From: a virus | Taxonomy: Duplodnaviria > Heunggongvirae > Uroviricota > Caudoviricetes | Virus record (IMG/VR): IMGVR_UViG_2778261416_000003 | Location: 1 to 18,122 of that record | Length of the DNA stretch: 18,122 bases | Direction: 5' to 3' (one strand) | Part shown: piece by piece, positions 2,092-18,122 of the stretch | Numbering within the stretch: position 1 is the first letter of the stretch | How the letters are laid out: every line of letters starts with the position of its first letter | The notes under the pieces: generated by a model | The model's input: only the letters and a program-made list of their open reading frames with translations | The model's database searches: none | What the model was told of the DNA's origin: nothing | Translations under genes and position numbers: made by a program

Positions 2092-2173
2092 AATAAAAAA
2101 ATAACCCGAGGGGTGACTCAGGTTATTTGAGGTTTCAGTCTCGGAGAATGCTGTCTCAAGCGAGGTGAATAAT

Positions 2174-3106: not shown

Positions 3107-3108
3107 TT

Positions 3109-3330: not shown

Positions 3331-3342
3331 ATGAGGTGTTAT

Positions 3343-3597: not shown

Positions 3598-3598
3598 G

Positions 3599-4149: not shown

Positions 4150-4153
4150 TTCC

Positions 4154-4447
4154 ATGAGCAAAGTACGCGTTATTTTTGAATTTAATCATGTTTCGCATGA
4201 CGAAAAGTTGGCAGGCAATGACTGTGTTGAAGTGCATGAAAAGATTGGAGTGGATGTGAAAACAGAACGTGATACGGATAACAGGCCGACGTCACTCTGT
4301 GACGTTTATGCAAGTATTCTCCAGTATCACAGTCCTGCAATTATTCAGTTTCTCTCAGCGGAATTTCAGGCATCTGCACAGTCTTTTGGAGCGGATGCCA
4401 TCATTAAACGCCACCGCGTGCATAAAGCATCAGGCACACTGCAATAA
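4154..4447 (+). CDS. hypothetical early protein, member 2 of a tandem paralogue pair
   Basis: AGGGG then ATG 4154 (internal Met of track ORF 4127..4447); N-terminus MSKVRVIFEF. Confidence 0.55.
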   Translation: MSKVRVIFEFNHVSHDEKLAGNDCVEVHEKIGVDVKTERDTDNRPTSLCDVYASILQYHSPAIIQFLSAEFQASAQSFGADAIIKRHRVHKASGTLQ

Positions 4448-4458
4448 GGAAAAACAAA

Positions 4459-4989
4459 ATGGCTAAACGCGTTACAAAATTAAAGGCCGCAGCCGAGGCG
4501 GCACCGCAGACCCGGGAAGAAGTCAGCCGTGATATCCGCACCCTGGGAGATATTCAGCGAGAGGCGCTGCGCCTGGAAACGGCGATGAATGACGAAGTGG
4601 CAGAAATCACCGCCCGTTATACGCCGCAGATTGAAAATCTTAAAAAGCAAATCAAAGTGCTTTTTAAAGGGATTCAGGACTGGTGCAAAACCAACCGTGA
4701 TGAGCTGACGAACGGCGGCAAAACCAAAACAGCCAATCTGACCACCGGAACGGTGTCATGGCGGCTGGGAACGCCATCATGCAGCGTCAGCCGTGATGTG
4801 GAAGGTGTGATTGAAATGCTGCGCCGTATGGGGCTTGAGCGTTTCATCCGCACGAAAGAGGAAGTGAACAAGGAAGCCGTCCTGGCGGAGCCGGATGCTG
4901 TGAAAGGCATTGCCGGTATCAAGGTGAATAAAGGCGCTGAAAGTTTTTATGTCGAGCCTTTTGAACAGGACGCCGGACTGAATAAATAA
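4459..4989 (+). CDS. gam: Mu Gam-like host-nuclease inhibitor (Ku-like dsDNA end-binding protein)
   Basis: 176 aa; colinear with Mu Gam (MAK...LKAAAEA, GDIQREALRLETAMNDEVAEIT, ANRDELTNGGKTKTANL, ERFIRTKEEVNKEA, EPFEQ); AAGGA RBS. Confidence 0.9.
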   Translation: MAKRVTKLKAAAEAAPQTREEVSRDIRTLGDIQREALRLETAMNDEVAEITARYTPQIENLKKQIKVLFKGIQDWCKTNRDELTNGGKTKTANLTTGTVSWRLGTPSCSVSRDVEGVIEMLRRMGLERFIRTKEEVNKEAVLAEPDAVKGIAGIKVNKGAESFYVEPFEQDAGLNK

Positions 4990-5134
4990 CACCACATTAA
5001 TCAATTAAATATCACTTCATTTTAATTATGGCGCTCGCGTCAGGGGACTGCTTGCGCCTGAAAACAGAAAATAAGGGTTAAGAAATATGAAATACGTTTA
5101 TATCGTCATTAATAATGTGGTGGGGAAATAAATC

Positions 5135-5668
5135 ATGATTGATGCAAAAGTGCTTGAAGGGGTTAAAAACTGGCTGTGTATTTATGGCCGCCTGACCTGC
5201 GGTGTACTGGCTGAAAAAATGAATATGCCGCCATCCTCCATGGTTTATTTTCTGCGTGATGCGGTTGATGCAGGCGTGCTGACGGAATGTAACGGTTTTT
5301 ATGATATTCCGCGCCCCCGCCCGGTGCAGCCGGTTCGTCGCAAATGCAGCCAGGAATCTGCGGCTGATGATGTTCAGTGGTGCGGCTTCAGAAAATCCCT
5401 GCCATGGATTGAGGGGCATGATATTCCGTCGATGGCGTGGGAATTTGCTCAGGGCGTTCTGACCTGTGAAACCGTTTATGTGGTGGCTGAAGTTGATGAG
5501 CAGGCCATGAAAGAAGGCGTGCCCCAGTTTGTGATGGCGTATATCGACATACGCCTGGGCGTCATTATCTGCGGTTTAAGCGGCTGGAATATCACTGAAC
5601 ATGTTCTGCGCTACCTGATTGTTGACCGGACAGCAGCGCCTGCCGGGATATCTGCGGAGGTGGCGTAA
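5135..5668 (+). CDS. hypothetical early protein with a possible N-terminal winged-helix DNA-binding region
   Basis: 177-aa ORF after a 145-bp AT-rich gap; GGGGA RBS; N-terminal pattern GRLTCGVLAEKMNMPPSSMVYFLRDAVDAGVL looks HTH-like. Confidence 0.55.
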   Translation: MIDAKVLEGVKNWLCIYGRLTCGVLAEKMNMPPSSMVYFLRDAVDAGVLTECNGFYDIPRPRPVQPVRRKCSQESAADDVQWCGFRKSLPWIEGHDIPSMAWEFAQGVLTCETVYVVAEVDEQAMKEGVPQFVMAYIDIRLGVIICGLSGWNITEHVLRYLIVDRTAAPAGISAEVA

Positions 5669-6183
5669 TGTTCTTTAAAACATCAAACCCTTCCGCGCTG
5701 GCTGCGTGGCAAAAATACCAGCAGGACTGCCAGAAAGTTAAGGATGAGGCAAAACGCCTTGAGGCCGTGCTGAATGTTGCGTGCCGGTCGGTATTTGTAT
5801 CCGGTATCAGTGGATTTTACTTTAAGGGACTGCGTTTTACGGAGGACAAATATCCTTTTCATCGCGACTTATGGCGAAAACCGACTGCGTCGAATGGCTG
5901 GAGCTGCACACCGCGCACATCACGTATCCCTAAAACCCTGCGTGTTGCCTCTGATGAACTGAACAGTCTGTGGCGTGAATATTCGCCCGTCACGTATGCC
6001 AGAACCGATGCGCTGTTGTTCTGGTTGGGTATTGATTTCTCGGCAATCCTGTTTGGCCCTGTGAAGTGGTTCTGCGTTGACGATGTGATTTACCTTCAGT
6101 GCGGCGTAAAACCCGCAAAACAGAAAATGACCGAAATACTGTCTGATGAGTTTTATGCTGCTGAAAAGCGAGTCAGGGGGTGA
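5668..6183 (+). CDS. hypothetical early protein (171 aa)
   Basis: GGAGGTGG RBS; start overlaps the upstream stop (TAATG). Confidence 0.55.
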   Translation: MFFKTSNPSALAAWQKYQQDCQKVKDEAKRLEAVLNVACRSVFVSGISGFYFKGLRFTEDKYPFHRDLWRKPTASNGWSCTPRTSRIPKTLRVASDELNSLWREYSPVTYARTDALLFWLGIDFSAILFGPVKWFCVDDVIYLQCGVKPAKQKMTEILSDEFYAAEKRVRG

Positions 6184-6186
6184 TGC

Positions 6187-6738
6187 ATGATGAAATTACA
6201 ACCCATGGGACTAAAAGGTCGCGCCCCCGCTCATGTCCGTCCGTGGACACCTGAAGAAGATGCGCTGCTGATTGCGCTTTATTCATCCACCCCGGTTAAG
6301 GATATTGCTGCCAGAATAAAAAGAACTGTCTGGGCTGTATATAACCGGACTGGTGTATTGCGCAGTTCATACCCGGAGTTACTGAAATATAAACACCCAA
6401 GATTTACACCTGATGAAGATAAGTTTATTCGAAAAAATGCCAGAACAATGACCTGCCAGCAAATGGGAGAATATCTCGGACGTAATAAAGATTCTGTCAG
6501 ATGTCGGGCAGGAATGATTGGTGCTGGATTAACAAAGTGCGGAGAGTTACGCCCCGGCACGCACATATCTGATGATGATGTACGTCTTATACGTGCGCTG
6601 CGTGATTCCGATTACCCACGCCGTCTGTCATTCCGGGAAATTGGCGAAAAGTTTGGAATATCTGAACATTCTGCTCACGCAGTTTATTACCGTCGCCGGA
6701 CTGCCGAGGACGCTGTATTACGGGAGTTAACGCCATGA
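6187..6738 (+). CDS. hypothetical early protein with three tandem HTH-like repeats
   Basis: 183 aa; repeated module W/F-T-P-E/D-E-D ... I-A/G-x-x-I/L-x-R-T/N/S (WTPEEDALLIALY..., FTPDEDKFIRKN..., ISDDDVRLIRAL...SFREIGEKFGIS); AGGGGG RBS. Confidence 0.6.
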   Translation: MMKLQPMGLKGRAPAHVRPWTPEEDALLIALYSSTPVKDIAARIKRTVWAVYNRTGVLRSSYPELLKYKHPRFTPDEDKFIRKNARTMTCQQMGEYLGRNKDSVRCRAGMIGAGLTKCGELRPGTHISDDDVRLIRALRDSDYPRRLSFREIGEKFGISEHSAHAVYYRRRTAEDAVLRELTP

Positions 6739-7064
6739 TAACGACCTTATTTGTTGAATCAGATGAACCTCTTGTGTGTGCCGCCGGAATGCCGCTCTGT
6801 GGCGGAACGCTGACCGGTGTTTATTTCGGGGATTTACGCGGTTATCCCTGGCATTCACTGAATGATGCTTTCCCACCTGATATGGAGGCTGCCGTGCTGA
6901 TTGTTCAGTATGGTCACCGTCAGGAGCTGCGCATCGGCCATATGGGGTATGAAGGCTTTTTTGTTGATGAAGAAACCGGAGCCTGCCTTGAAGATGAAGA
7001 CGGACAGGTGACGCACTGGTGTCATATTTCGGCTTTACCGGAATTACGGGAGGTGAATGCGTGA
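6735..7064 (+). CDS. hypothetical early protein (109 aa)
   Basis: ATGA overlap with the upstream stop; GGGAG RBS. Confidence 0.5.
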   Translation: MITTLFVESDEPLVCAAGMPLCGGTLTGVYFGDLRGYPWHSLNDAFPPDMEAAVLIVQYGHRQELRIGHMGYEGFFVDEETGACLEDEDGQVTHWCHISALPELREVNA

Positions 7065-7411
7065 GAAGTTATATTGATAATGAAAAGCTGGAGACAATAA
7101 GCGACTGTCTTAGCTTGCTGGCAAAAATCAAAGAAACTATTGAAGAGATTAAATTTCAGCTTGAATACGCACCATGTGGCGATGATGCATGGCGTAATGC
7201 TGCCAGAAAAGCACTGGCTGTCTTTCAGAAACAACGCCGGGCTGTTGAATACCGCCTTGCTGTATTGCGCCAGGAGGAAAAGGAAAGAAATATAAGACGT
7301 CATGAACGCGTTAATGATTTCCTTGTTCGTGAATTAAAAGAGCGCGTGCCGGAGTCGGTGTTTTTTGAATGTGAGGCTATAGCCCGTAGCAAAGCACTGG
7401 AAACAGATTAA
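7061..7411 (+). CDS. hypothetical early protein (~116 aa, GTG start), probably coiled-coil
   Basis: GGAGG upstream of GTG 7061, which overlaps the upstream stop (GTGA); charged heptad-like sequence. Confidence 0.5.
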   Translation: MRSYIDNEKLETISDCLSLLAKIKETIEEIKFQLEYAPCGDDAWRNAARKALAVFQKQRRAVEYRLAVLRQEEKERNIRRHERVNDFLVRELKERVPESVFFECEAIARSKALETD

Positions 7412-7426
7412 GCAGGCAGGTGAATA

Positions 7427-7735
7427 ATGAGTATTGAATTAAGATCGTCTTATGAATATCGCAAAATCCTTATCGCCGGAGGCATGAAACCGGAAGATGC
7501 AGAGAAATTCGTTTCTTTTATGGATAAAGAATGTGACAAGCGGGATATGCCAGAAATTATTATGGATGACATGATTCTGGATTCAGCCGTGGCGTTAAGT
7601 CCGTTATGGATTGTGCATACTCTTGCGGAAATAGCTAAAAGAAGTGACAAGCAGGCGGCTGTCGCCGCCCTGCGATTACTGGCTGAATTAAGTTGTTCAG
7701 TCAATCCCAATACGTTCTTTGACGAACCTGGTTAA
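7427..7735 (+). CDS. hypothetical early protein (102 aa)
   Basis: AGGTGA RBS then ATG 7427. Confidence 0.5.
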   Translation: MSIELRSSYEYRKILIAGGMKPEDAEKFVSFMDKECDKRDMPEIIMDDMILDSAVALSPLWIVHTLAEIAKRSDKQAAVAALRLLAELSCSVNPNTFFDEPG

Positions 7736-8107
7736 CATTGATTTGGTAACTTCTTTAATTAGATCAAATGGTGCGTCTGTAAACTCCTTTTTGATTCTTT
7801 CAAGGATTGGTTTTTTTCTCAGGGCGTTAGCTAAATCATGCCCCTGCTGGGTAAGCATAATGGGCGTGTTTCTGAAACCAACGCCCAGAGAATGGAAAAA
7901 GAAACCAATATATTTGGGTGTTTCTGACTGCATATCACCATTAACAATTGAGCCATTATCAGCGAGAAGCATAAGATGAAAAACTTTTTTATCCTTTTCC
8001 TCTCCTTCTGCCTCAGCCATGCCCAGATCCTGTAGTGTAAGGAAAGGTGTTTCAGCATCCTGAAAAGTTGTGAGAATACTTAATACTTCATCGTAATCTA
8101 TTTTCAT
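7697..8107 (-). CDS. hypothetical protein (136 aa), antisense moron at the early/late junction
   Basis: Only sizeable minus-strand ORF inside the + strand early operon; visibly AT-richer than flanks; AAAGG RBS upstream of ATG 8107 on the minus strand; 3' end overlaps the 7427..7735 gene convergently by ~39 bp. Confidence 0.5.
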   Translation of the reverse strand: MKIDYDEVLSILTTFQDAETPFLTLQDLGMAEAEGEEKDKKVFHLMLLADNGSIVNGDMQSETPKYIGFFFHSLGVGFRNTPIMLTQQGHDLANALRKKPILERIKKEFTDAPFDLIKEVTKSMLTRFVKERIGID

Positions 8108-8171
8108 ATCGATACCTTTAGTTTTATCCGGGCGGCGTTGCCATGCCGCCTGTTGTTACGGAGACACGATA

Positions 8172-8592
8172 ATGAATCGCGCTTCCCTGATTACCTTAAT
8201 ACATGTCGCAAAACGCGATCTACAGCTTGACCATGAGACCTACACATCCGTACTACTGGCAGCCACCGGCAAACCCAGTTGCCCGTTCAGAACGGTTTTC
8301 TGCCACCGTGCGTGGCTGGTTCCGGGATGATGGCCGGTTATGGGATGTCAATCTGCTGACCGGTGTTTCAGCCCTGCGTTTCGGTATAGAACAGACTGAA
8401 CTGCTGGTCTGTCAGGTGGAGTTTTTACTTGATGAACATAACGGGGAAGTCACCCGGCTGGTACTGGCACCGCGTGACGGCTTTATCGTTCCGGCAGAGC
8501 CGGACAGTAAGGGCCGGGGTGGTTCCGGTGACGATGTTGATGCCTTTATTCGCCAGCAGATGAAAAAACAGGGGATCAGCTTTGATGAATGA
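8172..8592 (+). pseudogene. GemA (Mu gp16)-like gene that changes frame, or a deletion-fusion remnant
   Basis: GGAGA RBS then ATG 8172; frame-0 ORF MNRASLITLIHVAKRDLQLDHETYTSVLLAATGKPSC... resembles the DUF1018/GemA N-terminus from memory but stops at 8330; the only long ORF continues in the +1 frame (8203..8592), has no RBS, and ends overlapping the gp45-like start. Confidence 0.35.
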
Positions 8593-9196
8593 TGAAGTGT
8601 TCAGCCGCCTGATTGCCCCGGTAACGCGCGGTATTCGCCTGTTGTTTGGCCGGGGCGTTCTGACCGGCACACATGACGAACTGAAAATGCAGAATGTGCA
8701 GCTCACCGGCATGGACGGCGAAACCTTTGATGATGTGGAGCGTCCCCAGCAGTACGGGCAGATCAGCGTTCCCCTGCCGGGTGCGGAAACCTTTTTTGCC
8801 TGTCTGGGCGGACAGCGGGATCAGACTGTGGTGCTTGTGGTGGAAGACCGGCGCAGCCGCCCGACCGGACTCACAGCCGGAGATACGGGGGTGTATCACC
8901 ATGAGGGGCACCGGATACGGTTAACAAAGGATGGTCGCATTATTGTGACATGCAAAATGCTGGAGATTTACGCCGATGAGGGGATGCGGGTGGATACGCC
9001 GGAGGCCACCTTTACGGGCAATGTGACGGTGGATAAAAACCTGCATGTTAAGGGTAATTTCGTGCTTGATGGTACAGGTAAATCAGACGGGCTGTTCACG
9101 ATGTCTGATGCCGTTATTGCCGGGATCACCTATTCCGGCCATGTGCATCAGGATAACGGCAAAGGCAGTAAGACAGGAGCGCCGGAGAATGGCTGA
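8585..9196 (+). CDS. baseplate assembly protein V-like (Mu gp45 family)
   Basis: ~203 aa; position directly upstream of gp46/47/48 homologues; gpV-like N-terminal region; ATG 8585 overlaps the upstream stop. Confidence 0.8.
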   Translation: MNDEVFSRLIAPVTRGIRLLFGRGVLTGTHDELKMQNVQLTGMDGETFDDVERPQQYGQISVPLPGAETFFACLGGQRDQTVVLVVEDRRSRPTGLTAGDTGVYHHEGHRIRLTKDGRIIVTCKMLEIYADEGMRVDTPEATFTGNVTVDKNLHVKGNFVLDGTGKSDGLFTMSDAVIAGITYSGHVHQDNGKGSKTGAPENG

Positions 9197-9626
9197 TATT
9201 GCAATTGTATGGGATCAGGGGTGCGGTTCGCTGCAACTGAACGGTGCCGACCTGCTGACGGATGACAGTCTGCTGACGGCCGTTCTGATTTCGCTGTTTA
9301 CTGACCGCCGGGCGCTGGCATCGGATGAAATCCCTGACGGTACGCGTGACCGCCGGGGATGGTGGGGAGACAGTTTTCGCCCGCGTCCCATTGGCTCCCG
9401 TCTGTGGCTTCTCCGCCGGGAAAAAACGCTGGCCTCGGTGATAAGCCGTGCCCGTGCTTACGCGGATGAGGCGCTGGGCTGGCTCAGTCAGGATGGCGTG
9501 GCGTCATCCGTGGTCTGTCATGCAGAACGTGTGGGACACGCGCGGCTGGCGCTTTCGGTGCGCATAACCCTGCCTGATGGTTCAGTGAGGCCCATGATTT
9601 TTTATGCTGATCTTAAGGGGGAGTAA
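9189..9626 (+). CDS. Mu gp46-like baseplate protein
   Basis: ~145 aa from ATG 9189 (internal Met of track ORF 9045..9626, overlapping the gp45 stop); GWWGD motif; synteny. Confidence 0.8.
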   Translation: MADIAIVWDQGCGSLQLNGADLLTDDSLLTAVLISLFTDRRALASDEIPDGTRDRRGWWGDSFRPRPIGSRLWLLRREKTLASVISRARAYADEALGWLSQDGVASSVVCHAERVGHARLALSVRITLPDGSVRPMIFYADLKGE

Positions 9627-10708
9627 TGCCTTATCAGCCTTTACCGCTGGCACAGTTAATCACGCAGACACAGCAGGATATCAGCCAGCGCCTGCCCGGC
9701 TCGCAGCCGGGTGTGAATGAAACCACCCTGAATGCCATTGCTTACGCTCAGGCAGGGTTATCTGCTCAGGAGCATGAGCATCTGGCCTGGATTGCGCGTC
9801 AGATCATCCCGACCGAAGCCGATGAAGCCGAACTGCTGAAACACTGTGCATTCTGGGGCGTCATGCGTAAGCCTGCCTCTCGGGGGGACGGGCCGGTTCA
9901 GCTGATGCTGACCACGGATGCGGGGATCAAGGAAGGTGTGCTTCTCCAGCGAAGTGATGGCGTGGTTTACCGTATCACCACCTCCCTGACCGGTAAGGCC
10001 GGTACGCTGAATGTCAGTGTGGAAGCCGAAAGTGCCGGTCGTGCGGGGAATGCCCCGGCAGGGACAAAACTGACATTTATCACACCGCAGGCGGGGATCA
10101 ACCAGACGGCCACGGTGACCGGAACGGGGATCACCGGTGGTGCGGATGTGGAAACCGTGCCGGAGCTGCTTTCCCGTCTGGTTTTCCGGGTGCAGAATCC
10201 ACCGTCCGGCGGCACGCAGTATGATTTTGAACGCTGGGCGCGTGAAGTGCCGGGCGTGACGCGGGCATGGTGCCGCCCGGAATGGCCGCAGGCGGGCAGC
10301 GTGGGGGTAACGTTTGTTCAGGATAATAACCCGGACATTTTCCCCGGTGACGGTGATGTTCAGCGGGTGGCGGATTATATCCGCAGTCATGATGATCCGG
10401 CGACCGGCCAGCCTGTCGGACAGCCTCTGGGGCCGACGGTGACCGTGTTTAAACTGACCAATAAGCCGGTGCCCTTCAGCATCAGGATCATCCCGAAAAC
10501 ACCGGAGAATCAGGCGGCCGTAAAACAGGCGCTGACCGACCTGTTGTATAACGAATCCCGGCCCGGCGGTCTGGTTCTGCCGTCGTCTTTCTGGCGGGCG
10601 GTGGCAGGGGTGAAAAATCTGGAGGATTTTGAAGTGCGCAGTCCGCTGACGTCAGTTCAGGCGGGAGACAGTGAGCTGCTGACGGTAGGAGAAATCACAT
10701 GGCTGTAA
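9626..10708 (+). CDS. baseplate J-like protein (Mu gp47 family)
   Basis: 360 aa; GGGGGAG RBS; TAATG overlap with gp46; size and position match Mu gp47 / P2 J. Confidence 0.8.
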   Translation: MPYQPLPLAQLITQTQQDISQRLPGSQPGVNETTLNAIAYAQAGLSAQEHEHLAWIARQIIPTEADEAELLKHCAFWGVMRKPASRGDGPVQLMLTTDAGIKEGVLLQRSDGVVYRITTSLTGKAGTLNVSVEAESAGRAGNAPAGTKLTFITPQAGINQTATVTGTGITGGADVETVPELLSRLVFRVQNPPSGGTQYDFERWAREVPGVTRAWCRPEWPQAGSVGVTFVQDNNPDIFPGDGDVQRVADYIRSHDDPATGQPVGQPLGPTVTVFKLTNKPVPFSIRIIPKTPENQAAVKQALTDLLYNESRPGGLVLPSSFWRAVAGVKNLEDFEVRSPLTSVQAGDSELLTVGEITWL

Positions 10709-11259
10709 CCCTGACCCCGCATCAGCGCGCCCTGTTGCAGTTACTGCCTGACGGGCTGGCATGGGACAAGCGTCCGTCATCCGTACTGGCATCATTATGT
10801 CTGGGCCTCAGTCATTCGACAGCGCGTGTATCCTGGACGGGTAAACAGCTGCTTGCCGAGCGTTTCCCTGACACGTCGCGCCTGCTGCTGGAAGACTGGG
10901 AGCGTTATCTCGGGCTTCCCGAGTGTGATATGGCCGGAGCCACCCTCACGGAGCGACAGCGTTATGCCGGAAATAAATACCGGATGAAGCCCTCGCTGAA
11001 CCGTGAATTTTATATCCGGTTTGCGGCGGAGTTTGGTTATCAGATTGACATTCAGCCCTCACCGGATTCGCAGTGGGTCAGTATTGTCACGATTAACAGT
11101 GAAACCGGCTACCGGAATATGAATGTGCTGGATGATATTCTCACGCCGCTGCGTATTTATGAAGGCGGTGCGCTGGAATGTATTCTGAACCGTTATAAGC
11201 CTGCATGGCAGACGTTTATTTACGTTTATGCAAACAGCCATGAAGAGGAGACTATTTAA
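10699..11259 (+). CDS. Mu gp48-like tail protein (DUF2313 / YmfQ-like)
   Basis: 186 aa; AGGAG RBS; lies between the baseplate J-like gene and the tail fibre as in Mu and e14. Confidence 0.75.
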
Positions 11260-12140
11260 TGTTTCATGTTGATAATAATTCCGGCGTGGCGAATATGCCT
11301 GCGCTGGCACCGGCGCAGAGTAATACCACCACCTGGTTTACCGAAGGTGACGGACAAAAAGGTATCAGCTGGATTGGTCAGGACTGGCTGAATATTCTCC
11401 AGGCCGAACTGCTGAATATTCTGGCTGAAGCCAGTATTCAGCCGGATAAGGCGCAGTTAAACCAGCTTACGCTGTCCATTAAAGCCATTATCGCTGCGAA
11501 TGCCTTTTCCCGGAAAAATAACCTGAAAGAAATTGCTGATGCCGGTGCGGAGGCCCAGCGTCTGGCCCGTGGTTATCTTGGTCTGGGGACGCTTGCCACA
11601 AAAAACAGTCTTGGTCCCGCTGACATTAATGCCCTGGCGAAGGATCAGAATCTCGCCGACCTGGAGAATAAGGGAACCGCCCGTAATAATCTGGATGTTT
11701 ACAGCAAAAGCGAAGGTGATAACCGTTACCTGCGCAGGGAGCAGAACGGCGCAGACATTCCGGATAAAGGGGCTTTTATCGATAACGTCGGTTTACGGGA
11801 AACGGTAAACAGGGCGGCGAATGCCCTGCCATCGGACGGCACCGCCGTTGCCGCGAACAGGCTGGCAAATGCCCACACAATTAATGGTGTTCCCTTTGAC
11901 GGGACGCAGGATATCACTATCTCATCAGGAACAGTAACCGCCATAAGACTGGGGTCGGTGACCGCACATATGCCCGGAACATGGGAAAGCTGGGATCTGA
12001 ATCTGGGGGGCGGCAATGTTCTTACCGGAATTAAAGTACAGGATGTCGGTAAGAATACGGCAGATAACGTCGGCGGCGTGTATTACCGGCCGTTGCAGTA
12101 TCTGTTAAATGGAGCATGGGTGACGGCTGCAAGTATATAA
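11259..12140 (+). CDS. tail fibre protein, constant N-terminal part plus variable C-terminal part (current orientation)
   Basis: 293 aa; tail-fibre-like N-terminus; C-terminal [18 protein letters not shown] resembles the P2 H C-terminus; a gix-like site lies inside the gene at 11776..11801. Confidence 0.85.
11776..11801. repeat. gix-like recombination site, left (inside the tail-fibre gene)
   Basis: TTATCGATAACGTCGGTTTACGGGAA, about 22/26 identical to the reverse complement of the Mu gix sequence as remembered; the inverted repeat begins at its centre. Confidence 0.7.
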
Positions 12141-12149
12141 TGATATTCA

Positions 12150-12173
12150 GAAGGCCTTCCGGCCTTCTTTATT
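12150..12173. terminator. intrinsic terminator hairpin between the convergent fibre and assembly genes
   Basis: GAAGGCC-TTCC-GGCCTTC (7-bp stem, 4-nt loop) followed by TTTATT on the + strand. Confidence 0.6.
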
Positions 12174-12693
12174 ACTGTGGCTGCTCAGGCCATTTAATGG
12201 CGTTAAATTCAGCTTCTGTTTTAATGGCGGGTAGTTCCATTTTCTTCACCTGACTGATGTATGCCATCCATTGGGTAAGTGCTGCTCTGTCTTCATCGCT
12301 GATGGTGCCCAGTTGTAGCTCCGTTCTCCAGTCATTAATTTTTTCATATGCCTGATTAAGATATGACTGGCGCATTGCTTCCAGTTTTCTTGCGTAGTTA
12401 ACCGGAATACGGGAGATTATGCCATTATCAAACTTCCAGTTTCCTGAAATATCCGTGCCTTCAGGGAGTTCATCGACCTCAACCACAGAAAACCCCGCAG
12501 GATACAGCGCCGAGGCGTCCTGTGATATTGAGCAGATAACGCCGCTGTCAGGTGTTATGCAAAGTTTATATTTTTTGGTGAATAATGGCAGGGATTCGTA
12601 GAAATCCTTACCATCTTCACTCTGGAAATACTGAACATTATTACCATATGGCATATTTTCAGGATAATAACGGGTTATATTTTTTAGTTCCAT
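12172..12693 (-). CDS. tail fibre assembly protein (Tfa / Mu U' / P2 G family)
   Basis: 173 aa; SEDGKDFYE...DASALYPAGFSVVEVDELP and C-terminal WPEQPQ match Tfa-family proteins such as e14 TfaE as remembered. Confidence 0.85.
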   Translation of the reverse strand: MELKNITRYYPENMPYGNNVQYFQSEDGKDFYESLPLFTKKYKLCITPDSGVICSISQDASALYPAGFSVVEVDELPEGTDISGNWKFDNGIISRIPVNYARKLEAMRQSYLNQAYEKINDWRTELQLGTISDEDRAALTQWMAYISQVKKMELPAIKTEAEFNAIKWPEQPQ

Positions 12694-12744
12694 AAAATCC
12701 TCCTGGAAATAAATCTGTTTTAAAATATATTATTTACTGACTAT

Positions 12745-13107
12745 TTATAACTGAGATACCGTAATCCATGTACCTCCGACTAATTTTTGCAGGGGTCTGA
12801 ATGCTATAAAATCGTTTGAAGCATCAACTTTACTGTCAATCTGCAGGCCTGCCATAACATTACCGTACGCAGAGTAATATGCCCCACCGTACATTACCTG
12901 CCTGTTCTCTGCTCCCAGCCTGATATCCTGGATATATCGGGAATCCGCATCCTGCTGTGTTATACCAGAAGTGATGTTTATGTCCTGCGTCCCGTCAAAG
13001 GGAACCCCATTAATATTTCTTGGGGTGGCGAGTCTATTCGCGGCAACGGCGGTGCCGTCCGATGGCAGAGCATTCGCCGCCCTGTTTACCGTTTCCCGTA
13101 AACCGAG
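12745..13107 (-). CDS. alternative tail-fibre C-terminal cassette (S'v-like); start-less, expressed only after inversion
   Basis: Minus-strand frame from the gixR centre to stop at 12745 reads [24 protein letters not shown]...FRPLQKLVGGTWITVSQL, sharing the first ~23 aa and the C-terminal pattern with the + strand fibre; followed on the minus strand by the Tfa gene. Confidence 0.75.
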   Translation of the reverse strand, partial: LGLRETVNRAANALPSDGTAVAANRLATPRNINGVPFDGTQDINITSGITQQDADSRYIQDIRLGAENRQVMYGGAYYSAYGNVMAGLQIDSKVDASNDFIAFRPLQKLVGGTWITVSQL

Positions 13108-13118
13108 GTTTTCAGGAA
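13093..13118. repeat. gix-like recombination site, right
   Basis: TTCCCGTAAACCGAGGTTTTCAGGAA, about 22/26 identical to the Mu gix sequence TTCCTGTAAACCGAGGTTTTGGATAA as remembered. Confidence 0.75.
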
Positions 13119-13183
13119 AGCCAGGATTAACTCTGTTTTATTCCTCATGCGACAATTCCGGCTTTTTATAATAAGGAAATCGT

Positions 13184-13756
13184 ATGCTGATTGGGTATAT
13201 CAGGGTGTCAACAAATGACCAGAATACGGCGCTACAAAGAAATGCGCTGGAATGTGCAGGATGTGAGCTGTTTTTCGAAGACAGAATAAGCGGTAAGACA
13301 AGGGAGCGTCCCGGACTTAAACGCGCATTAAAGCGACTCCGGCCAGGGGATACCCTGCTGGTCTGGAAACTGGATCGCCTTGGACGCAGTATGCAGCACC
13401 TTGTCCTTTTAACAGAAGAACTCCGGCAACGCGGCGTTAACTTCCGCAGCATTACGGACAATATTGATACATCCACTCCCATGGGACGTTTCTTTTTCCA
13501 TATAATGGGCGCGCTGGCGGAAATGGAGCGGGAACTCATTATTGAACGTACACGCGCGGGTCTTGCTGCTGCCCGTGCTCAGGGGCGTCATGGCGGCAGA
13601 CCTCAGAAACTGACAGAGAAAGAGCGGGAGCAAATCGCCCGTTTGCTGGCTAATGGCGAGTCCCGTAAACAAATCGCACTGATATTTGATATTGGCCTTT
13701 CCACCCTTTATCGTTATTTTCCTGCCTCACCAGCTCCGTCACCAAAAGTACCGTGA
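13184..13756 (+). CDS. gin: serine DNA invertase (Gin/Pin/Hin family)
   Basis: 190 aa; MLIGYIRVSTNDQN catalytic-serine N-terminus, WKLDRLGRSM, GRFFFHIMGALAEMERELIIERT, C-terminal HTH; near-colinear with Pin/Gin; AAGGA RBS. Confidence 0.95.
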   Translation: MLIGYIRVSTNDQNTALQRNALECAGCELFFEDRISGKTRERPGLKRALKRLRPGDTLLVWKLDRLGRSMQHLVLLTEELRQRGVNFRSITDNIDTSTPMGRFFFHIMGALAEMERELIIERTRAGLAAARAQGRHGGRPQKLTEKEREQIARLLANGESRKQIALIFDIGLSTLYRYFPASPAPSPKVP

Positions 13757-13765
13757 CGCTTTTTT
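13737..13765 (+). terminator. candidate intrinsic terminator at the end of gin
   Basis: CGTCAC ... GTGACG (6-bp stem, 10-nt loop) followed by C plus T6 (13760..13765). Confidence 0.45.
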
Positions 13766-13841
13766 GAATTTCCGCAAAACACATATTTTTCAGCGGTCGC
13801 TATTCTGACTCTGTTTAATTCAGAAACAGGCAGAAAAGACG

Positions 13842-15896
13842 ATGTCAGACTCCAAGTGGAAAATGCTCTCCGCCATGCCCGGAGAGTTTTCAGTCAAGGT
13901 TGCCGGTGGCACGGTGGCATTTATTGAAAGCCCTTTCCGCCCTTCGGGTAATAAAGGGGGGATCACCTTCGCAGACTGCGTGATCCGCTTCAGCACGAAA
14001 GAGCCATTATGGGTAATGCCGGTATCCGGTAATCCCAGTGCAGAAATCACCAGTTCAGGCGTGACTGGCATCATTCCAATCACATCTGACGTGGCCGGAA
14101 CGCTCACGCCCTCCGACTGGAATGCACCGGATAACGCCGGGCCTTCCGGTAGCACGAATGGCAGCAGTTCAAAGCCGGAATATTACTTTGTTGTCATTCT
14201 CGCGGGTCAGTCAAATGGCATGGCCTACGGCGAGGGGCTGCCGTTACCGGATTCGTTTGACCGCCCGGACCCACGCATTAAGCAACTGGCACGCCGCAGT
14301 ACGGTAACGCCCAACGGTACGTCGTGTACATACAACGACATCATTCCGGCAGACCACTGCCTGCATGATGTTCAGGATATGAGCGGGATAAACCACCCGA
14401 AAGCTGATCTGGCAAAAGGCCAGTACGGGACTGTCGGTCAGGGGTTGCATATTGCCAAAAAACTGCTTCCCTATATCCCACAGAATGCCGGGATACTTCT
14501 GGTGCCCTGTTGTCGTGGCGGGTCAGCATTCACCACTGGAGCCGACGGCTCATTCAGTGAGGCCAGCGGTGCTTCCGCTGATTCTTCACGCTGGGGGGCC
14601 GGTAAACCTCTGTATCAGGACCTGGTAAGCCGCACCAAAGTCGCGCTGGCGAAAAACCCGAAAAACAAACTTCTGGCTGTGGTCTGGATGCAGGGAGAGG
14701 CAGACCTTGCCTCAGGAAGCCAGCAGCATAATAGTTTATTCACGGCCATGGTTCAGCAGTTCAGAACTGACCTGGCTCCGCTTGCTGCGCAGTGCGTGAG
14801 TGGAAATGCCACCACGGTGCCGTGGATTTGCGGTGATACCACGTATTACTGGAAAAACGCTGGCACCGATAAATATGAGGCAGTATACGGTGGCTACAAA
14901 GGCAAGGAAGCACAGAAAATTTTCTTTGTACCGTTCCTGACGGATGAGAATGGACAGAGCACGCCAACGAATGCTCCGGCGGAAGACCCGGATATTGTGG
15001 CTGTCGGGTATTACGGTGCAGCATCCCGAACCCAGGGCAGTTTTGTTTCGACACAGCGTGACAGCCATTTCAGCTCATGGGCACGCAGGGGCGTCATTTC
15101 AGACCGTCTGGCCTCAGCTATTATGCTCCATGCAGGGCGCACGGCTGAACTGATGCGCGGGCAGACCGTGACACCACCGGATGAGAAGCCGTCACCTGAT
15201 ACACCATCAAAACCGTCCACGCCACCCGCAGACACCACGACGATGAGTACGCTATTTGCTTACCGGGCATCTGAGTCTGAAGGACGGTTGACACCACAGG
15301 GTTGGGCTGCCGGAGGTGGCAAGGCTCAAATCGTGGATGATGCCGGAGCCAGCGGGGGTAAGGCAATGAAACTGACCAAGGAAACAGGAAGAGCCCCCTG
15401 GTACCTTGAGCATGATGCTGGTAATGGTGCGGACCTGCTGGGTAAAGGTGGTCTTGTCAGTTGTCGTTTTAAACTCGATGGCGCGCTTACGGCTAATCAG
15501 TACGCACTGGCGCTGTACTGGCCGGTTTCTGCCCTGCCGCAAGGGGTTACTCTGGAAGGAAATGCCGGTCATAACCTGCTGGCATCGTTCTACGTACAGA
15601 GCGATGCCACAGACCTTAACGTGATGTATCACAAAGGAAACACGGCGCAGAACACGAAGCTGGGGTCATTCGGCGCATTTAATAACGAATGGCATACGCT
15701 GGGCTTCCGTTTTGCCGGTAACAACAGTATTGAGGTGACACCGGTCATTGATGGTAAGGACGGGACACCATTCATGCTGTCGCAGTCTCCGGTCGGCACG
15801 TTTACGGCAGACAAGTTGCGCGTGACCGATATCACTAAAAATGCGACTTACCCGGTACTGATTGACAGTATCGTGGTGGAAGTGAATAACGCGTAA
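13842..15896 (+). CDS. prophage-type sialate O-acetylesterase (NanS-p-like; SGNH/SASA esterase core, Pro/Ser/Thr linker, C-terminal lectin-like domain)
   Basis: 684 aa; esterase-core motif ILAGQSNGMAYGEGLPLPD, then VPCCRGGSAF and WMQGEADL; PPDEKPSPDTPSKPSTPPADTTT linker; location after tail-fibre genes as for NanS-p in Stx prophages; start codon uncertain. Confidence 0.75.
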   Translation: MSDSKWKMLSAMPGEFSVKVAGGTVAFIESPFRPSGNKGGITFADCVIRFSTKEPLWVMPVSGNPSAEITSSGVTGIIPITSDVAGTLTPSDWNAPDNAGPSGSTNGSSSKPEYYFVVILAGQSNGMAYGEGLPLPDSFDRPDPRIKQLARRSTVTPNGTSCTYNDIIPADHCLHDVQDMSGINHPKADLAKGQYGTVGQGLHIAKKLLPYIPQNAGILLVPCCRGGSAFTTGADGSFSEASGASADSSRWGAGKPLYQDLVSRTKVALAKNPKNKLLAVVWMQGEADLASGSQQHNSLFTAMVQQFRTDLAPLAAQCVSGNATTVPWICGDTTYYWKNAGTDKYEAVYGGYKGKEAQKIFFVPFLTDENGQSTPTNAPAEDPDIVAVGYYGAASRTQGSFVSTQRDSHFSSWARRGVISDRLASAIMLHAGRTAELMRGQTVTPPDEKPSPDTPSKPSTPPADTTTMSTLFAYRASESEGRLTPQGWAAGGGKAQIVDDAGASGGKAMKLTKETGRAPWYLEHDAGNGADLLGKGGLVSCRFKLDGALTANQYALALYWPVSALPQGVTLEGNAGHNLLASFYVQSDATDLNVMYHKGNTAQNTKLGSFGAFNNEWHTLGFRFAGNNSIEVTPVIDGKDGTPFMLSQSPVGTFTADKLRVTDITKNATYPVLIDSIVVEVNNA

Positions 15897-15901
15897 GCAG
15901 G

Positions 15902-15943
15902 ATAAAAAAATGCCGCCGGTAAGGGAAAACAAGAAACCGGCGG
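15902..15943 (-). terminator. minus-oriented intrinsic terminator
   Basis: GCCGCCGGT ... ACCGGCGGC (9-bp stem, 15-nt loop); on the minus strand the hairpin is followed by T7 (+ 15903..15909). Confidence 0.45.
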
Positions 15944-15992
15944 CAAAAAGATCGTTATATCCAAAGCAAAAAATGCAGTGCACCTTTTTACC
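15903..15992 (-). ncRNA. candidate small RNA (~90 nt) divergent from the small membrane-peptide gene
   Basis: Minus-strand TTGACA (+ 16025..16020), 15-nt spacer, TAATAT (+ 16004..15999), then the terminator above; no ORF. Confidence 0.25.
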
Positions 15993-16040
15993 TAACAGAT
16001 ATTACCGGTGTCAACACCATGTCAATAATTGGGAGGGATA

Positions 16041-16223
16041 ATGACATTTTTACAGCTTATTTTATTGTATTTCTGCACGGCAGTATGTGCGTTATATCTG
16101 GTGAGTGGTGGTTATAAGGCCATCAGAAATTATGTTCGCCGCAAAATTGAGGACGCAGCAGCTGAAAAACTCAGTAAAACAGCGCAGGTAACTCCGCTCC
16201 CAAAAGACCCGACCCAGCCCTGA
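16041..16223 (+). CDS. small membrane peptide (60 aa, one predicted TM helix, basic C-terminal tail)
   Basis: GGGAGGG RBS 4 nt upstream of ATG 16041; hydrophobic stretch FLQLILLYFCTAVCALYLVSGG; terminator immediately downstream. Confidence 0.45.
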   Translation: MTFLQLILLYFCTAVCALYLVSGGYKAIRNYVRRKIEDAAAEKLSKTAQVTPLPKDPTQP

Positions 16224-16238
16224 TTGCAGGGCTTTATT
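16216..16238 (+). terminator. intrinsic terminator overlapping the stop codon of the membrane-peptide gene
   Basis: AGCCCTG-ATTG-CAGGGCT (7-bp stem, 4-nt loop) followed by TTATT. Confidence 0.5.
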
Positions 16239-16258
16239 CCCGCATAAGGAGGATATAC

Positions 16259-16513
16259 ATGCCAGAAATTAAAGGCACCGTCACTGAAGACCTGGTAAAA
16301 CAGGCACTGTATTCCGGTGAAGTAAATAAGTTGCTGAAAGCGCAGGTCCGCAAGGATTTTGAGGCACAAATCGACACTTACGTTGATGAAGTGCTGGCAA
16401 AACTTATTGGGCCAGCAGTTGCGGCCAGTGATGCTGATAATGAGCCGAAAACCGACGCGCAGCCAGAGCAACCAGACCCGGCTCAGCCCGGAACTGACAG
16501 TACCATGATGTAA
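16259..16513 (+). CDS. hypothetical acidic protein (84 aa)
   Basis: AGGAGG RBS 6 nt upstream of ATG 16259; hairpin CAAACCGG ... CCGGTTTG (16519..16546) downstream. Confidence 0.5.
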   Translation: MPEIKGTVTEDLVKQALYSGEVNKLLKAQVRKDFEAQIDTYVDEVLAKLIGPAVAASDADNEPKTDAQPEQPDPAQPGTDSTMM

Positions 16514-16680
16514 CAATACAAACCGGTGGTGTCCTCTGCCGGTTTGACACTAATGAAAACATCTTTGCCGCTATCCAGCCATATGTAATCGCTGGATAGT
16601 ATTTCGTATTCAGAAATATAGCTGCTTATGGAGCAGTCAATCCTGCTTCCCCATCCGGGCAGGCAAATGAACCGGTATCA

Positions 16681-16974
16681 TTAGTCCGATTCACGCTTTT
16701 GTAGAATCGTTCCCAGAATGCTATACAGCTCATTAGCCTGTTGCTCCATCATTGAGACGGAGGCTATACGGTGCAAAGTGATTTCAGGAGGTGGCACACC
16801 TCCATCTTCTTGCTGTGGAGGAAAAACATAAGATTTAATAAAAAAGTTGAAGCATATGAACTCTCCCGCACTCGAACTGTATTTGCAGGCATCTGAATAA
16901 TCGGAAAAATAATCATTATAGATTTCCGCATTTTCAATCATTTTTCGATTTCTCGTCGTTACATGATTGTCCAT
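16681..16974 (-). CDS. hypothetical protein (97 aa), divergent from com-mom
   Basis: AAGAGG RBS 5 nt upstream of ATG 16974 on the minus strand; AT-rich; downstream hairpin CTATCCAGC ... GCTGGATAG at 16567..16598. Confidence 0.45.
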   Translation of the reverse strand: MDNHVTTRNRKMIENAEIYNDYFSDYSDACKYSSSAGEFICFNFFIKSYVFPPQQEDGGVPPPEITLHRIASVSMMEQQANELYSILGTILQKRESD

Positions 16975-17097
16975 AGCAGCCTCTTACGCTGGCAATTAAC
17001 CAATTGACTTCTATAAATTAGTTGATTTGTTTGCTTTGCGGTATTCAAATGTACAATCATTCAGCACTTATGCGTTACAGCACCGTTTAAAATTAGT

Positions 17098-17190
17098 GAT
17101 CAAACTCATAAATTTTCGCTAATGACATTTCGTGTTATTTGTTGTATCAATTAAATAAATCAAATCGATCGTTTTTGTCGATCGATTGAG
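17098..17190 (+). promoter_or_regulatory. com-mom upstream regulatory region with three GATC (Dam) sites and a palindrome
   Basis: GATC at 17098..17101, 17167..17170 and 17180..17183; palindrome AATCGATCG-N7-CGATCGATT (17163..17187); Mu mom is known to be controlled by Dam methylation of three upstream GATC sites. Confidence 0.4.
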
Positions 17191-17230
17191 TGATAAAGAT
17201 ATCAACAACAAAGCAGGAGGTTATGCGGCC

Positions 17231-17431
17231 ATGTATCGAAACATACGGTGCCGACATTGTAACAAGCTACTGGCACGAGCCAGCTTCAGTTATCTGGAAG
17301 TTAAATGTCCGCGCTGTAAAACCCTCAATCAAATCACATCTCAGAGCGCCACAGAGCACCCCACATACACAAGGAAATCCTGTCGTGGGGAACAGAAAGC
17401 AAGTTACATCCCGTATCATCAGCACGCCTGA
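17231..17431 (+). CDS. com: Com-like zinc-finger translational activator of mom
   Basis: 66 aa; CxxC...CxxC (CRHC ... CPRC); AGGAGG 10 nt upstream of ATG 17231; overlaps the mom reading frame as in Mu. Confidence 0.75.
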
Positions 17432-18122
17432 ACTTATTCACTATAACGACAATATCGTCGGTTATGGCTCCCGTGAGTTACGGGTTGAGACAATAAGTTG
17501 CTGGCTGGCCCGGCTGGTCGTCGTCAATAAACATTACAGCCATCGTTTCGTAAATAATTCCTACCTTCATCTGGGCATATTTTCAGAACGGGAGCTGGTT
17601 GGCGTAATGCAATGGGGTTATGCCCTTAATCCAAACAATGGTGCACGCGTCGTAACTGGCACGCAGAACCGCGAATATATGGAGCTTAACCGGTTATGGC
17701 TGCATGACTGTATGCCGAGAAACTCCGAATCAAGGGCAATCAGTTACGCGCTCAAACTAATCAGACAACTTTATCCGCAGGTGCAGTGGGTTCAGTCGTT
17801 TGCAGATGAGCGTTGTGGCTGTCTTGGTGTCGTGTACCAGGCAAGCAATTTTGATTATGTAGGCAGTCATGAAACAACATTCTATGAACTTGATGGCGAG
17901 TGGTATCACGAGATTTGCAAGAATGCAATCAAACGAGGAGGACAGCGAGGTGAACATCTGCGGGCTAATATCGACAGAGCCAGTGTTCATAAATTCCGTC
18001 AGTTTCGTTACATCCGGTTTCTGGACAAGAGAGCCAGAAAACGCCTTAACACAAAGCTATTCAAAGTCCAGCCTTACCCAAAACCACAAACAGTTAAAAC
18101 TGGTTTGAAAGAGAGTGAATGA
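17385..18122 (+). CDS. mom: Mom-like DNA modification protein; start uncertain (ORF open from 17190)
   Basis: Long ORF in a different frame overlapping the 3' half of com; GTG 17385 has AGGA 9 nt upstream; rightmost-gene position after gin and com as in Mu. Confidence 0.7.

Follow-up and report, generated by a model that had tools for sequence, protein, structure and literature searches.

A com–mom operon in a putative deletion-derived relic of an Sp18-type Mu-like prophage of Escherichia coli

How would a com–mom module be expressed in an element that carries no Mor or C activator? This question was raised by a DNA stretch of 18,122 nucleotides (IMG/VR record IMGVR_UViG_2778261416_000003, positions 1 to 18,122), referred to here as the window, at one end of which an earlier note, made from the sequence alone, had described such a module. 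The region carries the well-known anti-restriction operon of phage Mu, intact, in an ordinary defective-prophage relic; it represents no new system. We read the whole, with a probability of roughly 0.6, as the com–mom operon at the right end of an Sp18-type E. coli Mu-like prophage, now a deletion-derived relic whose activator was lost. The features on which this reading is based are listed in Table 1.

Table 1. Positions of the features in the window and the basis on which each was assigned
Feature	Position	Strand	Basis
gemA (gp16) remnant, codons 1–37	8172..8283	+	tblastn, 92% identity to residues 1–37 of a relative's GemA; genomic context
Baseplate gpP remnant, residues 270–374 of 374	8275..8592	+	tblastn, 98% identity; Pfam GpP_4th
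Deletion junction, 5-bp microhomology TTGCC common to gemA and gpP	8279..8283	.	left parent matches through 8283, right parent from 8279
Distal GATC, outside the conserved regulatory block	17098..17101	.	absent at the same position in O157
Conserved com–mom regulatory block; putative OxyR/Dam element, presumably promoter	17136..17189	+	aligns to Mu ATCAATTAAATCGATCGGTAATACAGATCGATT
Best OxyR-like 37-bp site, two ATAGnTnnnAnCTAT half-sites, suggestive only	17146..17182	.	13/20 positions
Inverted repeat AATCGATCG-N7-CGATCGATT with the GATC pair 17167 and 17180	17163..17187	.	homologous to Mu GATC II/III
com Shine-Dalgarno AGGAGG	17215..17220	+	read from the sequence; conserved in O157
com, zinc-ribbon translational activator (predicted), 66 aa	17231..17431	+	ATG start; Pfam and Mu Com similarity
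Com RNA target motif GAGCGCCACAGAGCACC (GAGNNCC-N3-GAGNNCC)	17344..17360	+	exact match to the SELEX consensus (PMC6483171)
Translation-inhibition hairpin, CCCCAC (17359–17364) with GUGGGG (17385–17390)	17359..17390	+	predicted fold, MFE −14.3 kcal/mol
mom, predicted tRNA(Gly)-dependent adenine aminoacyltransferase, 245 aa, GTG start	17385..18122	+	Pfam, PDB and Mu Mom similarity; RefSeq size match WP_000528246.1

As the earlier note had claimed, the element lacks both Mor and C: no gene of the Mor/C family was found anywhere in the window by Pfam and PHROG scans or by tblastn with Mu C, Mu Mor and the activator of the relatives. The only trace of a hidden remnant was a 75-aa ORF at 3103–3330 that weakly resembles the N-terminal portion of Mor (E=0.004, search space of 36 kb); this ORF is also present in intact relatives beside the real activator and is therefore no substitute for it. 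In those intact relatives, gp16 is followed by a Mor-family gene and then by lysozyme and further genes. The product of this Mor-family gene, the C-like activator of the lineage (WP_000852372), is 40% identical to Mu C and 28% identical to Mor, and there is one copy per intact relative. In the window, a single internal deletion of ~19.6 kb, a segment that is present in JE86-ST05, fuses gemA to gpP. The deletion removed most of gemA, the one C-like activator of the Mor family, the lysis genes and every head and tail gene as far as the middle of gpP. What remains comprises genes for a repressor-like and a Ner-like protein, A, B, the early genes, part of the baseplate, the tail fibre, the invertase and cargo genes. 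With the full late, lysis, head and tail set absent, the element is not a complete (inducible) Mu-like prophage. It lies in preA/yeiA, where its insertion left a 5-bp duplication.

Many genomes match the window over positions 1–8283 only or over positions 8279–18122 only. An assembly artefact is unlikely because the junction was found in three independent data sets, namely the source contig, which is identical in sequence, and two SRA runs with the same junction. One illegitimate-recombination event at the TTGCC microhomology would account for the loss. From these comparisons, the absence of Mor and C is the consequence of this single ~19.6-kb deletion and no design feature, and com–mom may be an undecayed passenger of a recent deletion. 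The lineage is carried by 233 of 5,426 E. coli genomes (about 4% of complete genomes, O157:H7 included). In the window, the cargo of ~3.4 kb between gin and com consists of SASA/DUF6645, DUF1378, DUF826 and a divergent ORF. No Rfam family was matched in the window. Co-resident com–mom copies occur in other strains, for example in DLI.5a.

Mom of phage Mu is an enzyme with a GNAT fold that attaches glycine, taken from Gly-tRNA(Gly), to N6 of adenine in double-stranded DNA; the product rearranges to carbamoylmethyl-adenine, and many restriction enzymes are blocked by it. The ORF that had been called Mom-like was aligned with Mu Mom and showed 78% identity over 233 aa (E=5e-140). It also matched Pfam family PF25680 (Mom) over model positions 1–202 of 202 (E=1.6e-77) and PDB entry 8BV8 (E=2.4e-123). 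Residues W48, H58, Y59, R111, S124, D149, R151, Y159 and W181 were all identical to those of Mu in an ungapped alignment, where these essential or important residues follow the numbering of the 241-aa Mom of PMC13219725 and were mapped with an offset of +10, and the HTH-like insertion (~175–209) showed no gap relative to Mu Mom. The predicted mom product is full-length and apparently catalytically competent. The pN/pS ratio of mom was 0.06 and that of com was 0.14 against the O157 copy, and because of these values both genes appear to be under purifying selection in the lineage.

The start of mom had been described as ambiguous, with a frame open from 17190 and an RBS-supported GTG at 17385. 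The GTG held up and the longer frame did not. The N-terminus MGNRKQ read from GTG 17385 aligns with MGKEKK at the GUG of Mu, and the longer frame is not conserved in relatives; for these two reasons we take GTG 17385 as the real start and consider the ambiguity settled. A longer isoform beginning at 17190 or at ATG 17223 was rejected, as the extension stays open for no more than 27 codons in O157 and 10 in Mu, and just 2 nt separate ATG 17223 from its Shine-Dalgarno. The source assembly annotates a spurious 299-aa Mom from ATG 17223.

The com product matched Pfam family PF10122 (Zn_ribbon_Com) with E=7.5e-13 and was 45% identical to Mu Com (E=2e-14). All four cysteines of the CxxC...CxxC zinc ribbon (Cys7, Cys10, Cys26 and Cys29) are present, and the sequence includes CPRCK. 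In RefSeq, the gene of identical length in relatives is labelled Com family protein (WP_014334043.1). The overlap with mom in another frame, which the earlier note had pointed out, amounts to 47 nt (17385–17431). Gene callers can miss com, as happened in the source assembly.

The RNA target of Com was defined by SELEX as CC(N)2-3GAG / GAGNNCC(N)2-3GAGNNCC (PMC6483171). The motif given in Table 1 was the sole match to this consensus in the window, while any match was obtained in 3 of 200 shuffles, and 9 of 11 com loci have it at an identical offset; positions 17349–17356 within it read CCACAGAG. In the adjoining hairpin, the mom Shine-Dalgarno AAGGA (17371–17375) lies in the loop and the GUG start in the stem. 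Its folding energy alone was no better than that of shuffles (z=−0.5); the hairpin is supported by homology and covariation: it is homologous to the CCCAC/GUGGG hairpin of Mu, and the stems covary across genera (GCCAC/GUGGC, CCUCC/GGAGG). The whole arrangement of Com motif and hairpin with covarying stems is kept in 9 of 11 loci. Because the Com motif directly precedes the hairpin in which the mom GUG is sequestered, translation of mom should require Com, and the unmasking of the mom start that had been proposed by analogy with Mu is backed by the exact SELEX motif at this place.

Control of Mu mom by Dam and OxyR has been summarised (PMC3378877, PMC2909390), and the Mu footprint positions used here come from reviews, secondary descriptions and a PvuI-fragment experiment (PMC3378877). 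Three GATC sites within about 130 bp upstream had been taken to fit this type of control. They are located at 17098, 17167 and 17180, that is 133, 64 and 51 nt upstream of the com ATG, respectively. The pair at 17167 and 17180 aligns with GATC II and GATC III of Mu, flanks included, whereas the site at 17098 is not homologous and lies outside the conserved block; an equivalent of Mu GATC I is absent. Homology with 199 diverged E. coli copies starts only at 17136, and positions 17136–17189 are nearly invariant among the window, O157 F1273 and SW070917, while positions 17190–17204 vary. What had been described as a 9-bp palindrome with two GATC sites does contain both sites of the pair but is really an inverted repeat, with perfect 9-bp arms AATCGATCG (17163–17171) and CGATCGATT (17179–17187), one GATC in each arm and a 7-bp spacer. 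Between the two GATC sites there is a T5 tract. Their spacing of 13 bp is also seen in front of com or mom in 9 of 13 loci, which come from different genera.

With the 36 GATC sites of the window placed uniformly, the clustering was unexceptional (P=0.31 for a three-site span of at most 82 bp and P=0.59 for a gap of at most 13 bp); the count in the pre-specified 135 bp upstream of com gave a Poisson P of 0.003. We regard homology and conservation as stronger evidence for the GATC pair than these clustering statistics. The best OxyR-like site is one of three positions in the window with its score, which was reached with a non-significant P=0.13 in a local composition-matched shuffle and equals that of the best site in Mu, which ends at the homologous GATC III. 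Judged from the sequence, the GATC pair in its inverted repeat is a putative signature of Dam-methylation/OxyR control. The inverted repeat was also considered as a minus-strand terminator and rejected, as there is nothing upstream on that strand to terminate and the repeat is homologous to the regulatory GATC region of Mu.

Across the lineage, the promoter region upstream of com is ~27–30 bp shorter than Pmom of Mu. The Mu C-binding box (~3 helical turns, between GATC III and −35) is absent from it, in the intact relatives as well, and no C-rich or TTAT..ATAA element was present. This shortened promoter without a C box appears to be a mildly new point. The late-promoter motif of the lineage was absent upstream of com at up to 3 mismatches, yet it is exact at Plys and PI of an intact relative. 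A scan for sigma-70 promoters gave no match on the + strand. The sequence TGATAAAGAT (17191–17200) was considered as an extended −10 homologous to TAAGAT of Mu and was rejected, as it lies in the patch that is least conserved between lineages; the −10-like TAAAGAT at 17194–17200 is not conserved in O157. Without a recognisable sigma-70 promoter, the operon is probably transcribed weakly or not at all, except where an activator is provided in trans, which a related Mu-like phage could do. Transcription in a dam+ cell would yield both Com and Mom. Of the two routes to mom expression offered by the earlier note, dependence on a co-resident helper is plausible; regulation rewired in this element is contradicted by positions 16975–18122, which are 100% identical to copies in DLI.5a and OZ547136, so that there is no element-specific rewiring.

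The operon resembles com–mom of Mu (Mu_52/Mu_53, AF083977) in gene order, in its right-end position after gin, in the identities of Mom and Com given above, including all four zinc-binding cysteines, in the GUG at the homologous codon, in a com/mom overlap of ~50 nt, in a Com RNA motif abutting a start-sequestering hairpin, and in GATC II/III 13 bp apart in an inverted repeat, which is imperfect in Mu. It differs from Mu in that GATC I is missing and the ~27–30 bp between GATC III and com, which in Mu hold the C box (TTATGCCCCAATAACC...), the −35 and a T6 tract, are absent. The cargo between gin and com, a 12-aa C-terminal extension on Mom and the deletion of the cis-encoded activator are further differences. 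SP18 has been cited as encoding Mom and its regulator (PMC3299994), and Sp18-type E. coli prophages, such as that of O157:H7, belong to the same lineage: the regulatory block, com and mom are 94.5–100% identical, and the short promoter architecture and the cargo genes are shared (RefSeq Com WP_014334043.1/WP_001310452.1 and Mom WP_000528246.1/WP_000528251.1). Intact members add the single C-like activator, which is part of the ~19.6 kb lost here. The O157 version differs in the segment upstream of 17136 and in the divergent upstream ORF. To our knowledge, phase variation is not known for mom. A 13-bp-spaced GATC pair within OxyR half-site-like sequence near a promoter is also found in agn43 and in the P22/Salmonella gtr switches (PMC2909390); in contrast to gtr, with two pairs, and agn43, with three sites, there is one clear GATC pair here with a modest match to the OxyR consensus.

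In another explanation, the com–mom promoter of Sp18-type prophages has lost the C box and the GATC/OxyR element lies over the core promoter, so that Dam versus OxyR occupancy alone would set transcription in the manner of agn43 and P22 gtr, without an activator. The orphan operon would then still be expressible, possibly phase-variable, and would modify host DNA. Distances at the promoter fit this idea: the proximal GATC is 51–54 nt from the com ATG in the window, O157, SW070917 and Edwardsiella and 78–83 nt in Mu and three other loci, and the short distance leaves no room downstream of GATC III for a C box of ~3 turns (size from bioRxiv 10.1101/2025.05.02.651988) together with a core promoter. 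A com-less locus (L011) has its GATC pair just 15–28 nt from the mom ATG, so the element can sit at or downstream of a promoter. The spacing of 13 bp is that of the gtr OxyR half-sites, the proximal pair of which is at −46/−33 (PMC2909390), and the missing late-promoter motif points in the same direction, but the OxyR match is weak and the lack of a recognisable sigma-70 promoter is more typical of an activator-dependent promoter. About half of the HTH residues that contact DNA in Mu C (as listed in the same bioRxiv paper) are different in the C-like activator of the lineage, which therefore may use an unrecognised site within 17136–17165. Moreover, Mom is cytotoxic if mis-expressed (PMC3378877, PMC4461284), so that constitutive expression in dam+ lysogens would be costly. 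We consider such activator-free switching unlikely. The most far-reaching form of this idea for the Sp18-type lineage is quite improbable, namely that, with no C box and the Dam/OxyR element ~27–30 bp closer, onto the core promoter, an agn43/gtr-like switch and Com govern Mom and the late activator is dispensable, so that orphan operons could momify host DNA, perhaps phase-variably, for heterogeneous protection or as an epigenetic mark.

The element could also be a natural mini-Mu with its ends, A, B and com–mom, which would be transposed and packaged by a Mu-like helper, either co-resident or superinfecting, whose activator would switch on mom to protect the packaged DNA. MuA-site-like repeats (GGTATCAAA...) are present at both ends, together with the 5-bp target duplication, and A (696 aa) and B are full length; however, the ends are by definition retained by any internal deletion. 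Four independent internal-deletion derivatives of the family have all kept A, B, the early genes and com–mom, but their endpoints differ from strain to strain and two of them have kept the activator and lysis genes, so that random decay is favoured over a selected satellite architecture. Prophage decay usually proceeds via loss of lethal late genes. While strain DLI.5a has a deleted element together with a second com–mom copy, no helper is known in the source genome, of which 20 kb of a 350-kb contig were examined. A helper-exploiting satellite of this kind seems very improbable to us, and the deletion-derived relic is the reading that we prefer.

As it stands, the relic matters little: it is a textbook operon in a decaying prophage, and Com and Mom are already annotated in hundreds of E. 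coli genomes. Its promoter without a C box indicates that the C-dependent Pmom paradigm of Mu may not transfer to the commonest Mu-like lineage of E. coli. A com-type regulator before a toxic DNA-modification gene at the right end of a prophage has been described for FluMu Hin1523, Pnm1 and B3 ORF47/48 (PMC3299994). The gene under Com here is a true Mom, unlike that of the com–methyltransferase modules of FluMu, Pnm1 and B3, and the close E. coli analogue SW070917 has the same promoter, com, Com site, hairpin and GUG but a cytosine methyltransferase downstream. The reuse of the com/Com-site/hairpin cassette before a different DNA-modification gene supports the view of this cassette as a portable safety catch for toxic DNA modifiers. 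If the orphan operon is expressed, it raises the question of host-genome momification by defective prophages.

An intact com-mom module, as the earlier note had described, was borne out by alignment to Mu, which gave 45% identity for Com, with all four cysteines kept, and 78% identity for Mom, without internal gaps. Com, a zinc-ribbon protein of 66 aa starting at ATG 17231, matched Pfam Zn_ribbon_Com (E=7.5e-13), and Mom matched Pfam PF25680 (E=1.6e-77) as well as 8BV8, the crystal structure of Mu Mom (E=2.4e-123). Mom moves glycine from Gly-tRNA(Gly) onto N6 of adenine in double-stranded DNA, and the product rearranges on the base to give 6-NcmdA (PMC13219725). All nine residues reported there as essential or important (W48, H58, Y59, R111, S124, D149, R151, Y159 and W181 in 241-aa numbering) were kept in the window Mom. 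Compared with the O157 copy, mom gave a pN/pS of 0.06 and com one of 0.14. Judged by sequence, this is a true com-mom module, undamaged and held under purifying selection in the lineage. It is also already known: RefSeq lists identical proteins under the names Com and Mom, the variant was present in 233 of 5,426 complete E. coli genomes, and SP18-type prophages have been named in the literature as carriers of Mom and its regulator (PMC3299994).

The N-terminus of the window Mom, MGNRKQ, aligned with MGKEKK at the GUG start of Mu, and the open mom frame upstream of GTG 17385 extended for 65 codons in the window, against 27 for the copy in O157 and 10 for Mu. This settles the start, ambiguous in the earlier note, on the RBS-supported GTG 17385, where the RefSeq annotation likewise begins. 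The gene caller of the source assembly missed com and began a 299-aa "Mom" at ATG 17223 (window 17223-18122, 19021-19920 of the source locus L030), a mis-annotation that arose because the mom frame is by chance open across com in this variant.

A Com target of NGAGNNCC(N)2-3GAGNNCCNN has been determined by SELEX (PMC6483171). The sole match in the window, GAGCGCCACAGAGCACC, was located at 17344-17360, and at least one match occurred in 3 of 200 shuffles. This motif is abutted by a predicted hairpin, its stem formed by CCCCAC (17359-17364) and GUGGGG (17385-17390) and its loop holding an AAGGA Shine-Dalgarno sequence; Mu has a homologous CCCAC/GUGGG hairpin. The motif was found at the same offset in 9 of 11 com loci from several genera, with an adjoining hairpin masking the start codon or the Shine-Dalgarno sequence, and the stems covary across com loci (GCCAC/GUGGC, CCUCC/GGAGG). 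The folding energy on its own was unremarkable (z=-0.5), and the support for the predicted mom start hairpin is comparative.

In E. coli SW070917 (locus L029, 2465-3802), the regulatory block, com, Com site, hairpin and GUG showed 93% identity to the window up to approximately 17398, and a 351-aa DNA cytosine methyltransferase was found where mom would be. The same arrangement was present in Mu-like phages inserted in the Stx phages LC727881 and LC727895. The Com-controlled cassette has been re-used in front of another DNA-modification gene, the recombination point lying a few codons past the mom start. Mom homologues without com, with 62-70% identity, were seen in Serratia and others (L016, approximately 2290-2500; L018; L022) and in Yersinia (L017 and L019), where a terminator-like hairpin and about 130 nt of conserved non-coding leader come before mom. 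This leader may be a structured RNA in place of Com control; it matched no Rfam family. In Serratia quinivorans (L018, 3303-3531), a tRNA-Met, tRNA-Leu and tRNA-Gly(UCC) cluster lies directly downstream of the com-less mom, which is notable since Mom uses Gly-tRNA(Gly), and could be a coincidence or an integration site.

The 18,122-bp window spans from the ATG of transposase A to the mom stop codon and is identical to 1799-19920 of locus L030, from contig NOSF01000001.1 (NCBI assembly GCA_002521955.1). In this locus, a repressor-like and a Ner-like gene lie left of A, and the element sits in preA/yeiA, flanked by a 5-bp target duplication, TATAT. MuA-site-like repeats were found at the left end (TCATTTGATACC-type, L030 561-830) and the right end (GGTATCAAA-type, L030 19921-20040); because of a TA repeat, the termini can be placed only to within 1-2 bp. 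The cargo between the invertase and com, approximately 3.4 kb (window 13842-16974), has no counterpart in Mu. It encodes the SASA (sialate O-acetylesterase-like)/DUF6645 protein, small DUF1378 and DUF826 proteins, and a divergent 97-aa ORF without a family match, and these genes may be surface-glycan or superinfection-related morons.

Gene content of the window in order
Feature	Position	Description
Transposase A	1-2091	Mu-transpos_C and HTH_Tnp_Mu_1 domains
B	2165-3106	downstream of A
kil, gam, gp11-like gene, SANT/Myb protein		among the Mu-like early genes after B
DUF2513 gene	7697-8107	minus strand
gp45 to gp48		baseplate genes, directly after the DUF2513 gene
Tail fibre, tail-fibre assembly gene, Gin-type invertase		after the baseplate genes
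684-aa SASA/DUF6645 protein, small cargo ORFs		after the invertase, then com-mom

Megablast against the 5,426 complete E. coli genomes revealed a sharp breakpoint, with many genomes matching the window at 1-8283 alone or 8279-18122 alone. The missing stretch is present in intact relatives such as JE86-ST05 (locus L002) and JKHS016 (L005), where it carries gp16/gemA, one 140-aa Mor-family gene, lysozyme, spanins, a TraR/DksA-like gene, and head, tail and tape-measure genes up to gpP. Base by base, the window tracks gemA to 8283 and gpP from 8279 onward, which places the deletion, approximately 19.6 kb in L002 coordinates, at the 5-bp microhomology TTGCC (8279-8283). At the junction (8172-8592), codons 1-37 of GemA are left in one frame and residues 270-374 of gpP in another; the 52-aa gemA-frame and 129-aa gpP-frame ORFs are remnants, not genes. 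The junction was also found in two independent SRA assemblies and is thus not an assembly artefact. The earlier note was right that Mor and C are missing: tblastn queries of Mu C, Mu Mor and the single activator from the relatives (40% identity to Mu C, 28% to Mor) detected no remnant in the window, and the absence of an activator is explained by the deletion. Members of this prophage family with internal deletions of independent origin were found in E. coli TOE17, JMF1 and DLI.5a, all of which keep A, B, the early genes and intact com-mom; the JMF1 copy, at another chromosomal site, has 99.9% identity to the window and IS903B in place of approximately 7270-11259. Such deletions are ordinary prophage decay.

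A 75-aa early ORF (3103-3330; phrog_3375, unknown function), found in intact relatives as well, has no HTH and weakly resembled the dimerisation part at the N-terminus of Mor (tblastn E=0.004); the relatives' activator matched it at E=0.32. In the JE86-ST05 locus L002, RefSeq annotates a "tRNA-OTHER" (8792-8871, minus strand) between the minor head protein and virion morphogenesis genes.

Three GATC sites and an inverted repeat with 9-bp arms are present as the earlier note claimed. ATCAATTAAAT...AATCGATCG-N7-CGATCGATT aligns with Mu GATC II, GATC III and their flanks. Of 13 loci, 9 have a GATC pair spaced by 13 bp ahead of com or mom, and 6 have one spaced by 18 bp. What argues for a role of the sites is this conservation, since the GATC cluster statistic over the whole window was weak on its own. 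When the window is compared with the 94.5%-identical O157 lineage, 17136-17189 is almost invariant and 17190-17204 variable. The first GATC (17098) falls outside the conserved block. An OxyR-consensus scan gave 13 of 20 matches at 17146-17182, the same as the best site of Mu; measured against a null of matched composition, this score was not significant.

A PvuI-fragment experiment placed the binding of C in Mu downstream of GATC II (PMC3378877); the C box covers some three helical turns and adjoins the -35 element on its upstream side (bioRxiv 10.1101/2025.05.02.651988). The Mu sequence there reads TTATGCCCCAATAACCACAC..., then a T6 tract, then TAAGAT. The C-rich box is absent in the window lineage. 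The proximal GATC lies only 51-54 nt from the com ATG in the window, O157, SW070917 and an Edwardsiella prophage, whereas the distance is 78-83 nt in Mu and three other loci. The late-promoter motif of the lineage, CCGCAAANCCNGCCC, 30 nt upstream of TAyGCT, occurs exactly upstream of lys and I in an intact relative; none was found within 16975-17231, even with 3 mismatches, and no sigma-70-type promoter was detected on the plus strand. Given these absences and the short GATC-com distance, the Mu C-box/core-promoter model misfits the lineage. The single C-like activator may have a middle-promoter or autoregulatory site in the gemA-to-activator intergenic region of JE86-ST05, where a near-match to the late motif, CCCCAAATCCCGCCA, lies at L002 837-851.

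Rewired regulation in this particular element, one of two options in the earlier note, does not hold, as 16975-18122 (1,148 bp) is 100% identical to copies in other genomes; the promoter difference from Mu is therefore a property of the whole lineage. Activator-independent Dam/OxyR control of com-mom across that lineage is the less likely reading. Most likely, com-mom is here a silent or weakly expressed relic that could be switched on in trans by a related phage.
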